Assembly: GCA_046563655.1 (NCBI GenBank)
Contig: CM102290.1
Coordinates: 13,454,001 to 13,518,000, forward strand
Direction: 5' to 3'
DNA from: Yuukianura sp. NJ FZ-2021
Lineage: Eukaryota
Length of the DNA stretch: 64,000 bases
This document shows, piece after piece, positions 57,278 through 60,200 of this stretch (its first letter is position 1; every line of letters begins with the position of its first letter). A model generated the notes under the pieces. That model did no database searches and was not told the DNA's origin. It saw only the letters and a program-made list of their open reading frames with translations. The position numbers and the translations under genes were made by a program.

Positions 57278-60200
57278 CTAGAACTCTGCAAATTCTTTAG
57301 CGCAGCGCTCCGTCGATGAAATCCGTAAAACTTCTTCTTCGTAGTCGTCAAAGTTACTCGTATCACCAGATCCTTTAAATTTGGGGATGAAAGGAGCTTC
57401 CACCTAAAATTTAAAAGAAGAGAAAGTTCAGTTTAAACTTTCACTTTTGAGCATTTCATTGTGCATTTCCCATTTCCAACAACACTTTTCCCAATTACAC
57501 TAAAAGTGAAAGAATGGCAACAGGGCACATGAGACACAAGCCACCTCCATTTCCAACGATTTGTTGAACTTTTATTTTCGGCACTGTTCCAAAAATTAGT
57601 GAAACGCCGTGAAGTGAACGAGAAGTTGAACAAAACTTGGTACAAAAAAGAAGATAGATGATCATTTTTTGAATTTAGCCAATTGACTCATCACAAAACG
57701 AGTAAAGCTACCACTTCCGAGGAAACAAAAACGTCAAGTAGGTAACAAATTAGTTGATCGATCATCGGAAAAAACAAATGAACCACCTATGAGACAGTGC
57801 ACAACCGCAGGAACCATGTGGCAGGCAAAAGGCCCCAATACAGTCAAACCTCTCATTTCTAAGTAGTAGGTAAAGTGGTCAAAATAACTTGATCAAAAAG
57901 TGAAAAGATCAAAAGTGAAATGTCAACACTTATAAATATTAGATAAATAAATAAATGTTTTATTAGGCGAAGTATATTCCTATGTTTGATCTCCTCACAT
58001 TTTGACATTTTCACATTTTGATCAAATTGTTTTCGAACACATTACATGGAACCCAATTCTAAACTCTTTCTGAGTGGTTGATTTTTCGGGTTACCGTAAA
58101 CTTTCTGAATACAGTGTACTCACAGCTAATTTGTATAAAATTAAGCTTCCCCAAAAAGAACTTTTCGGCATGTCACGTGAATGGCGCCAAAAAAATGTTT
58201 AGAAGTGAGAGGTTTGACTGTAATAAGCAACCGGATAGTTATGTTTACAACAAAATTGATCAAAAAAGGAAGTAAGTACTACCGGTTTATAATTGACGGG
58301 AAAGATTAATGGTCGTTTTGTGATAGGCTAAGTGGCTAAAACTCTTCAAAATGACTTCCGAAGACGTCCTCGGGTCCTATTTGTAACGCAACCTCTGGCA
58401 CGGCTTCAAAGTGCCGTGAGTCTCCTGGTCCTGTTACCTTGGGGATAAGGGCTACAGGAAGGACCTAAGTGATGCAAAGGACTTTATGATTCAGCAATAC
58501 TTGACAACATTTATTCAATTCTACAACTTTCACTCTTTAGTCGCTAAATTTCCGTTCAAGTGAAACCGGCAACATCGAAATGTCGATTTAAAAAACTTGT
58601 CACAAGAACTCAGCAGCGTCAACCTGACTTAGGAATGTCAGGAACGTATCGGCTATCGATCTAGAGTGCGTGACATGACTCCTATTAAATCATCACAGTC
58701 CTTGACAACCTGATCAAGATCCGACGTCCTACGGTAGCAGTGGAAACTAAATACTTCAGTGACAGTTGAAGGATTGCTAAGTTTGTCTTGGGCGGAACAG
58801 TCGCCAGGAAATAAATCGAAGTGGAACACTTTAGCACTTTTTCTGCCTAGTTTTGCAGTACAGAGGACCATCTCAATTAGCAACAAAAAAACCTCAATCT
58901 TTCTGCAAACTTTCCGCGGGGCAGCAAAGGAGGCCTCATTGAGGTTCCACACAACGAGATGGAGAAAGGCTCGAAGTATTTTATTGTTAATTGAGAGGGT
59001 CCTCTGTAGTAACTAACGATCTGTGCTCTTCTGTATGTCCAAAGACCATCGTTTCAAAGATTTTTGTCCACGGTTGTCACTTTTTAGTGGTAACTGCTAA
59101 AACTGCTGTGCACATGTAATACAATTCCACAGAACGCAAACTGACCAATAGGAAAACGGCACATCCTGCATAATACTAACACTGACAACTGTGGCCCACA
59201 ATGAACATTGAGTTTTTGTTGTGCCAAAACCGGAAATGGGTGAAAGCACTTTGAAATACACTTGATCCATGTTGAGGAGAAAAGAGATGAATAAAGCCAA
59301 AGCTATTTGGTCGTTGGAGACTTAAATTGAATAGCAGCTAAAGGATTCTTAAGGAACCAATTTACTCTGGAGAATGGAAATACTTGTGCGAAAAAGTTCA
59401 TCACAACAAATCACACAGCAAGTAATTACAAGAGTGAAGGAAACGAAAGAACACGAACAAATTGAATTCCACATGGAATTTCCCTCATTTCCTCCAAAGT
59501 CCACACTTTTAAAGTATATTCTGTTCAAAAACGATCGTAATTCCCTAAAACTTCTCAAGATAACTCCGACTCATCTCAAAAGTTCCACTATACGAAATCC
59601 CATACTTTTCACAACATTAAAACGCAATTACTTCCTTCGCATGGAACAAGTACAGCAGAACCTCTCTTATAGCAACTCAATTTTTCTAAAAGCTTGAAAC
59701 CGTTAACCCTCAACGCAAATAGAATAACGTCAGTTTTTACAGTGAAACTAAACTTTTAACTCAAACTTGAAACAAATCAGCTGTATTAACTTCGGGTGCT
59801 CAAATAACTCAAATGCAACGTAATCAGAGACTTTATGGTGTCGGAGGGAGTTGCTATAAGAGAGATTTTTCTGTAATGTTAAAAAGTCAATGGGAAATAG
59901 TAAGTAGAATGTCATTCATCATCATCGATTCATCTGTAACTCGAAGCGGACTAAAAAGTGTTATGCATAACTGATCAAAACTTAAGTTAAATGTAAAATT
60001 CCTTGCAATGTTACCTTCTTCTGGAAAATGGCAATCCAGTCTGTTGTCTGAAACCACCTATGGCTTTTGATATCGTTAACCCCGTTCTTCAAGTTACCGT
60101 ACCGTTTCGTTAAATCCACCTTAAAACCAACACAAATTATCAAAACCGGAAGCACTTTCCCCAGAAAAAAAATTTGAAGAGTCTAACCTGTAGCAAATTT

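Follow-up and report, generated by a model that had tools for sequence, protein, structure and literature searches.

The stretch of DNA analysed here, hereafter the window, comprises 64,000 nucleotides (nt) from Yuukianura sp. NJ FZ-2021 (GenBank assembly GCA_046563655.1, contig CM102290.1, positions 13,454,001 to 13,518,000 of the forward strand) and holds the 3' part of a gene that encodes the PKA catalytic subunit, as established with Folsomia candida proteins as guides and by direct reading of the exon junctions. The segment at 58336-58464 on its minus strand is very probably a functional alternative last coding exon of this Pka-C1-type gene, and we infer its use in this species from the sequence. 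The exon lies inside the last intron of the gene, 932 nt upstream of the canonical C-terminal exon, and supplies a second C-terminal tail that retains the main anchoring residues of the PKA tail, with other residues in place of Tyr330, which acts as the gate, and of most of the acidic cluster.

Anatomy of the Two Tail Exons

The features that make up the 3' end of the coding region, all read on the minus strand, are as follows.

60015-60119, minus strand: penultimate coding exon (VDLTKRYGN...WIAIFQKK), with the shared donor GT at 60014-60013
58465-58466, minus strand: AG acceptor of the alternative exon (...cacttAG), with a weak polypyrimidine tract (0.65 pyrimidines at -20 to -4)
58336-58464, minus strand: alternative C-terminal coding exon, 42 sense codons and a TAG stop at 58336-58338
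57404-58335, minus strand: spacer of 932 nt separating the two tail exons, with no conservation; it contains AATAAA at 57964-57959 and 57576-57571, and GTGAGT at 58123-58118
57278-57403, minus strand: canonical C-tail exon, with FDDY, RISS, FAEF and a TAG stop at 57278; the 3' untranslated region (3'UTR) runs onward below 57278

The penultimate exon ends at 60015 as ...CAG AAG AAG|gtaaca, in phase 0, and this one donor is common to both tail exons, each of which begins in phase 0 with a Val codon. The canonical exon starts at 57403 behind the acceptor ...aattttAG. A preliminary description of the window, made from the letters alone, had proposed that an intronic second tail exon of 129 nt is present here, and this is confirmed by the 42 codons with their TAG, the AG acceptor and the phase 0 start. 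The alternative exon also stands out in base composition, as its fraction of guanine and cytosine is 0.51 vs 0.35-0.38 in the flanking intron, and its product is recognizably related to the canonical tail, with 13 identities over 37 positions in BLASTP (E 7e-8 as a single comparison). The open reading frame alone is not rare: at 333 of the 2482 start positions in 60014-57404 (minus strand), 42 stop-free codons lie ahead. The significance of the exon therefore resides in its similarity and its conservation across species, and not in its openness.

The two acceptors differ in quality. Pyrimidine fractions at the alternative acceptors are 0.65 in the window and 0.53, 0.59 and 0.47 in three orthologous metagenome loci described below (L001, L002 and L003, respectively), vs 0.82 at the canonical acceptor of the window and 0.82, 0.88 and 0.65 in L001, L003 and a fourth locus, L004. 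Two further candidate splice sites within the alternative exon were considered and rejected. An inner AG (cctgtAG), 13 nt inside the exon, would lead to a stop five codons later if used as an acceptor, and the use of an inner AAG|GTAACA as a donor would duplicate the IPK segment. A Pfam scan at E <= 0.01 assigned no family to the alternative tail nor to the canonical tail of 41 residues, pieces so short that the scan has no power.

Residues Kept and Replaced in the Alternative Tail

Residues are numbered as in mammalian PKA, according to a HMMER alignment to chain 4wih_A and to the coinciding numbering in a second alignment. In the account given in PMC6143667, PKA's tail belongs in cis to the active site, and consists of a C-lobe tether, an active-site tether and an N-lobe tether, with a PxxP motif at positions 313-316; Phe327 belongs to the ATP site, and Tyr330 is indispensable to the closed conformation.

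Set against the canonical C-tail of PKA C-alpha (4wih_A, 1atp_E), the alternative tail of the window is of the same length class and shares Pro316, Gly-Asp 322-323, Phe327 and the two terminal phenylalanines, Phe347 and Phe350. It differs in having Val for Tyr330, EAVPEV for DDYEEE, Gly for Ser338 and Phe for Cys343. Of the PxxP motif, Pro316 is kept, whereas one inserted residue shifts the first Pro out of place (VLPVALIPK); the motif is retained in L001, L003 and F. candida, and is not found in L002.

Several of these positions are invariant in the five collembolan-type tails that were aligned, namely Pro316, a Val, Gly-Asp 322-323, an Arg, Phe327 with the Glu that follows it, and one Asp. 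Both phenylalanines of the terminal FxxF (F39 and F42) are likewise invariant, and in the window this motif reads FEEF and is directly followed by the stop. Conversely, the Tyr330 position is occupied by Val or Ile in all eight collembolan-type tails compared. The retention of Phe327 together with this replacement marks the tail as PKA-like, yet not of the canonical FDDY type, and the collembolan tail is thus predicted to work like a PKA tail without being the FDDY tail itself.

These alignments bear out most of what the preliminary description had said of the residues: the tail keeps IPK, GD, an equivalent of Phe327 and the FxxF at its end, and has lost the equivalents of Tyr330 and Cys343 along with most of the acidic run. 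Its claim that the Ser338 equivalent is lost holds for the window, which has Gly, but not as a feature of the exon family. This position is Ala in L001, L002, P0157, P0141 and P0166, and Ser in L003 and F. candida.

Orthologous Exons in Folsomia candida and in Metagenome Contigs

The RefSeq annotation of F. candida PKA-C1 comprises ten isoforms, which fall by alignment into two tail classes. Seven of them (X1, X2 and X5-X9) carry the alternative tail, as does the original genome model OXA62007.1, and the remaining three (X3, X4 and X10) carry the canonical FDDY tail. The alternative tail of F. candida is 43 residues long and directly follows ...WIAIFQKK. The window tail is 46-49% identical to it, vs 29-32% to canonical tails, and a tblastn search of the window with isoform X1 recovered 58449-58339 at E 3.6e-5 and 51% identity, with the canonical exon at E 0.22. 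A word-index search with the 42-residue tail alone gave no match because the window tail and the F. candida alternative tail have no exact five-residue word in common, so this outcome is not evidence against relatives.

The F. candida protein (XP_021951768.1; OXA62007.1 / A0A226EXW9) resembles the predicted product of the window in the attachment of the tail after ...WIAIFQKK, in the pattern GDSR[HY]FE.VP ... F..FEEF, in the absence of Tyr330, in the retention of the terminal FxxF, and in the possession of two alternative hinge exons, A and B. It differs in having the PxxP motif, two extra acidic residues and a Ser at position 338, and the identity between the two tails is 46-51%. An AlphaFold2 model of F. 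candida isoform X9, built from a 38-row alignment, has a mean predicted local distance difference test score (pLDDT) of 70, with values of 80-88 over tail residues 301-330 and 42-52 over residues 331-352. The activation segment (189-217) also scores below 50, so the low confidence is not specific to the tail, and the model is too weak to support conclusions on structure.

Further orthologous loci were sought by scanning metagenome contigs with the pattern [HGY][AP]GD[ST]R[YH]FE, which returned 34 stretches in seven loci, of which four (L001-L004) were accepted. The other three (L005-L007) were rejected as chance matches, given that only 9-15 residues around PGDSRHFE were similar and that kinase exons were absent nearby. 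L001 contains the alternative exon, with the canonical exon 519 nt downstream; L002 contains the penultimate and alternative exons; and L003, at 10.8 kilobases, spans nearly the whole gene, with hinge B, hinge A, penultimate exon, alternative tail and canonical tail. In all three the alternative exon stands in the same place and phase as in the window.

The conservation of this exon is evident at several levels. The AG acceptor is present in 4/4 genomic loci (the window and L001-L003), L004 being a spliced contig without acceptor, and an open frame with a stop right after the final Phe is found in 5/5 loci (the window and L001-L004). The open frame in the alternative exons of these loci is about 42-44 codons long. 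At the protein level, the window tail is 73% identical to those of L001 and L002 over residues 8-42 (tblastn, local) and 64-66% identical over the whole exon, and its identity to the alternative tails of F. candida and P0157 is 46-52%. For comparison, the canonical exon is 98% identical in amino acids between the window and L001. The mean global BLOSUM62 score is 118 within the alternative tails vs 51 to canonical tails. The window tail resembles the other alternative tails more than it does the canonical tail encoded by the same gene.

At the DNA level, a blastn comparison of L001-L004 with positions 56500-60400 aligned only the exons, some 80 nt of 3'UTR after the canonical exon and a single block of 22 nt; nothing aligned in the introns or the spacer. 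The alternative exon is thus an island of similarity 113 nt long, with 79% identity to L001 and 72% identity to L002, and this island ends at the stop. On the far side of the canonical stop, the conservation with L001 reaches about 80 nt further (57277-57198), and the 22-nt block lies about 500 nt downstream (56768-56747, minus strand, 95% identity). Both are probably conserved 3'UTR elements. The first AATAAA past the canonical stop is found about 1200 nt downstream.

Purifying Selection on the Alternative Tail

Proportions of nonsynonymous (pN) and synonymous (pS) differences, and the corresponding corrected ratio (dN/dS), were obtained from Nei-Gojobori counts, and nonsynonymous and synonymous changes were compared by a one-sided Fisher test. 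For the alternative exon, the comparisons involve 41-43 codons per pair, with pS near saturation.

Alternative exon, window vs L001: pN 0.19, pS 0.53, dN/dS 0.25
Alternative exon, window vs L002: pN 0.20, pS 0.75, dN/dS not computable (dS infinite)
Alternative exon, L001 vs L002: pN 0.13, pS 0.64, dN/dS 0.09
Canonical exon, window vs L001: pN 0.010, pS 0.39, dN/dS 0.02
Penultimate exon, window vs L002: pN 0.035, pS 0.46, dN/dS 0.05

Among the window and L001-L003, pN is smaller than pS in all six pairs, with Fisher p values from 4e-4 (window vs L001) to 9e-11. The alternative tail is therefore under purifying selection at the protein level.

Spliced Products and a Model for the Choice of Tail

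Four sequences show a non-FDDY tail joined directly to the kinase core: the proteins P0086 (352 residues), P0130 (203 residues) and P0149 (222 residues), and the open reading frame of L004. The last of these is the most informative as to the 3' end. Its coding sequence has no intron, and there is no GT after ...CAGAAGAAG; the junction reads ...CAG AAG AAG CTA AGA..., so that the GT donor is gone. Past the alternative stop, L004 continues through an AT-rich spacer of 354 nt that ends in ...gttatgttttcag (acceptor ...ttttcag), and beyond it into an intact canonical tail exon followed by a long 3'UTR. With moderate confidence, L004 can be regarded as an mRNA spliced at the proximal acceptor, with all the sequence beyond the alternative stop left in place as 3'UTR, and this layout suggests a choice between two competing acceptors.

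The spacers do not share a polyadenylation signal. Measured from the alternative stop, poly(A) hexamers occur at offsets of 372 and 760 in the window, 444 in L001 (ATTAAA) and 20 in L003 (ATTAAA), and L004 has none, so that no hexamer at a conserved position was found across these four spacers. Both this and the pyrimidine-poor alternative acceptors fit a competition between acceptors.

In the mechanism that we favour, the single donor after 60015 would pair with either the weak proximal acceptor at 58465 or the strong distal acceptor at 57404. In the proximal case, the last 42 residues of the protein would be the alternative tail, translation would stop at 58336, and the spacer and the canonical exon would most likely be left as 3'UTR; in the distal case, the protein would end in the canonical FDDY tail. 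The alternative tail would keep the anchors, namely Pro316, the GD turn, Phe327 lining the ATP pocket and the terminal FxxF docking on the N-lobe. Other residues would stand in for Tyr330, the gate, for most of the acidic cluster and, in this species, for the turn-motif Ser338 and for Cys343 too. Judging from the known roles of the tail in AGC kinases, the same catalytic core is predicted thereby to acquire an altered closing motion, an altered behaviour toward nucleotide and substrate, and altered phosphorylation of the tail.

Alternative Explanations

Several observations weigh against a functional alternative tail exon used in this way. The pace of evolution in the alternative tail is about tenfold that in the canonical one (dN/dS 0.25 vs 0.02), and a three-point split of the counts assigns about 12 nonsynonymous and about 9 synonymous changes to the branch of the window, an uncorrected ratio of about 0.4 that is more relaxed than that of L001 or L002. 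Within the close set, the window copy has also diverged the furthest: Gly stands at Ser338, its first six residues are rearranged, and it alone bears an in-frame deletion of two codons in the acidic stretch. It is thus relaxed relative to L001 and L002, yet not neutral. As to the products, the F. candida isoforms are automatic gene models, and the structural model of isoform X9 is confident over only part of the tail. The evidence for a shared 3'UTR comes from one assembled contig of another organism, L004, into which reads from pre-mRNA could have entered, and the spacer of the window is considerably longer than that of L004 (932 vs 354 nt). Its two AATAAA hexamers and one GTGAGT may point to a poly(A) site of its own or to further splicing.

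This last point leads to the explanation that disputes only how the 3' end is formed. The exon might be real but serve as an alternative last exon whose transcripts are polyadenylated within the spacer, for example by way of the AATAAA at 57964-57959, about 375 nt past the stop, so that splicing would compete with polyadenylation rather than one acceptor with another. Alternative last exons are a common route to a changed C-terminus, and the spacer does contain two AATAAA hexamers within its 932 nt. Such hexamers are, however, expected by chance in DNA of 35% GC, none is conserved in position across the spacers, and the spliced contig L004 runs through its spacer into the canonical exon and beyond. 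We consider polyadenylation within the spacer unlikely, though with an appreciable chance of being correct.

More fundamental objections would deny the tail itself a role. Inclusion of the exon places a stop far upstream of the canonical one, and the tail evolves fast, as might be expected of a regulatory exon, whether a 'poison' exon or a switch of UTR, that lowers or retargets the mRNA and whose peptide is not a selected product. Yet the substitutions are biased against amino-acid change in every pair compared; the frame, the start phase and the stop right after FxxF are kept in 5/5 loci; the residues with known roles in the tail (Pro316, GD, Phe327 and FxxF) are invariant; and the alternative tail is the majority form among the F. 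candida models. A purely regulatory function is therefore very unlikely. The exon might instead be a decaying tandem duplicate of the last exon, a pseudo-exon that is open by chance and not spliced in this species, given that runs of 42 stop-free codons occur often in this intron (the 333 of 2482 positions noted above) and that the window copy is the most derived one and two codons short. Against such decay stand the island of 72-79% DNA identity to L001 and L002, which ends at the stop within an otherwise unalignable intron, the combination of a pS of 0.5-0.75 with a pN of 0.19, which is unlike neutral decay, and the intact acceptor AG and phase, the one indel being in frame. We regard a pseudo-exon as extremely unlikely.

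Upstream Exons and Neighbouring Features

The exons upstream of the penultimate one were located by matches guided by F. candida and by junction reading, and the 5' exons of the PKA gene lie beyond the end of the window. Those within it are as follows.

62878-62960, minus strand: hinge exon B, 83 nt, an 86% match to the F. candida X2/X4 form and present in L003
62740-62822, minus strand: hinge exon A, 83 nt, from a match guided by F. candida and junction reading
61039-61165, minus strand: kinase exon (SEPHSRF...GYLK), from a match guided by F. candida and junction reading
60731-60786, minus strand: kinase exon, from a match guided by F. candida and junction reading
60626-60641, minus strand: micro-exon of 16 nt between ...aacAG and GTgagt, coding for (G)TPEYL in the P+1 loop
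60488-60534, minus strand: kinase exon, from junction reading
60188-60347, minus strand: kinase exon (...LLRNLLQ), from a match guided by F. candida and junction reading

The 53 residues encoded by 60346-60188 are 100% identical to Folsomia candida Pka-C1, and the other exons differ at a few residues, as would fit a springtail-like hexapod that is akin to F. candida but not that species itself. The hinge exons B and A follow one another in tandem and in the same phase, and as each is 83 nt long, the inclusion of both or of neither breaks the frame. L003 has the pair as well (3241-3345 and 3397-3480), and so does F. candida, where it distinguishes X1/X3 from X2/X4. In the Orchesella cincta model ODM99941.1 (P0131), part of exon B is apparently fused to exon A. 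The stretch TDFGF...WALGV is uninterrupted in L003 where the window has the 16-nt micro-exon, and intron positions thus differ among the relatives.

The preliminary description had further suggested that the duplicated hinge exon and the two tails give up to four kinase cores from one gene, and the F. candida models agree with it, X1-X4 pairing each of the hinges A and B with each of the two tails; the two 83-nt hinge exons cannot both be included in frame. Its reading of 58336-58464 as an alternative C-terminal exon of PKA-C is likewise supported by the F. candida orthologues, by the layout of L001-L003 and by purifying selection. The comparison with homologs recovered an orthologous tail in F. 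candida and in L001-L003, and the frame is open in 5/5 loci. Where the description went too far was in the novelty that it implied. The exon is real and conserved, but it is already in the public annotation of the relative F. candida and so is not new as such. No arthropod PKA-C was found to be described with an alternative C-tail exon in the full-text literature, a body of text in which most subscription journals and supplements fall outside coverage.

Two features elsewhere in the window complete its annotation. On the opposite strand, and convergent with the PKA gene, lies a neighbouring gene (53901-55537, plus strand) that matches Glycos_transf_1 (PF00534) twice, at E 2.4e-9 and 1.6e-7, and Glyco_transf_4 weakly. 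These matches indicate a putative GT4-type (ALG-like) glycosyltransferase encoded in several exons. At about 52190-52300, the six-frame translation shows a short tandem repeat, NYRNYENYRNYENY / KIIEIMKIIEIM.

Divergent Tails in Other Sequences

A HMMER profile of four divergent tails, searched against 1.84 billion representatives, matched 147 tails at E <= 1e-3, of which about 60 are not FDDY tails. The best 20 matches, those at E <= 1e-10, all have a non-FDDY tail, P0154 having both tails. By eye and by motif count, the divergent tails comprise at least four sequence types.

Collembolan type: GDSR[YH]FE[PA][VI]P
Tyr-keeping type: GDT[RS][HQ]FQ[ED]Y...HAK[DE]FEDF
L004/P0246 type
Nematode type: GD[T]RHF[VE]...

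Two sequences illustrate how gene models fare at this position. The model of P0137 (ENA, 110 residues) reads through an intron of 31 codons between the penultimate exon and the divergent tail exon, and that of P0154 (93 residues) fuses a shortened divergent tail with the canonical one. Errors of automatic annotation are frequent at this locus, and the matches suggest that similar tails are common in public data but present mostly as unnamed fragments.

Alternative C-termini of nematode kin-1 were reportedly described, for C. elegans, by Gross et al. in 1990. As in the window, a gene of this type has a divergent tail besides the canonical one from a single PKA-C gene, and in the nematode sequence P0154 (Panagrolaimus sp. 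ES5, UniRef100_A0AC34GC25) the divergent tail sequence is likewise upstream of the canonical one. P0238 and P0275, which are taken as nematode-type from their likeness to P0154, carry GD[T]RHF and FxxF but no Tyr330. What the nematode-type and collembolan tails have in common is thus the order of the exons, GD[ST]R[HY]F, a missing Tyr330 and FxxF. In overall sequence, however, the mean global BLOSUM62 score between nematode and collembolan alternative tails is 61, which is barely higher than the 51 between collembolan and canonical tails. The vertebrate splice variants of the PKA catalytic subunit (C-alpha1/C-alpha2 and C-beta) resemble the window in that alternative exons diversify one catalytic core. 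The passages of PMC5526564 and PMC6143667 that deal with these variants describe alternative 5' exons and N-termini, and no alternative C-tail exon.

These comparisons raise the possibility that the collembolan exon exemplifies a second C-tail module, ancient, widespread and hardly studied, in the PKA-C genes of invertebrates, a proposal that we advance tentatively and that is somewhat more likely to fail than to hold. If it were true, and one ancient duplication lay behind the divergent tails, a single core would give many protostomes two biochemically distinct classes of PKA: one with the FDDY gate and the turn-motif Ser, the other with the GD[ST]R[HY]F tail. The choice between them would be made by the competition of two acceptors within one terminal region of the transcript.

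For the annotation of this genome, the alternative exon should be modelled as it is in F. candida. An isoform that keeps the anchors of the tail but drops Tyr330, and here also the turn-motif Ser, would be a natural experiment on those residues, and invertebrates with a single PKA-C gene may be able to vary the catalytic subunit not only at its N-terminus but also at its tail.

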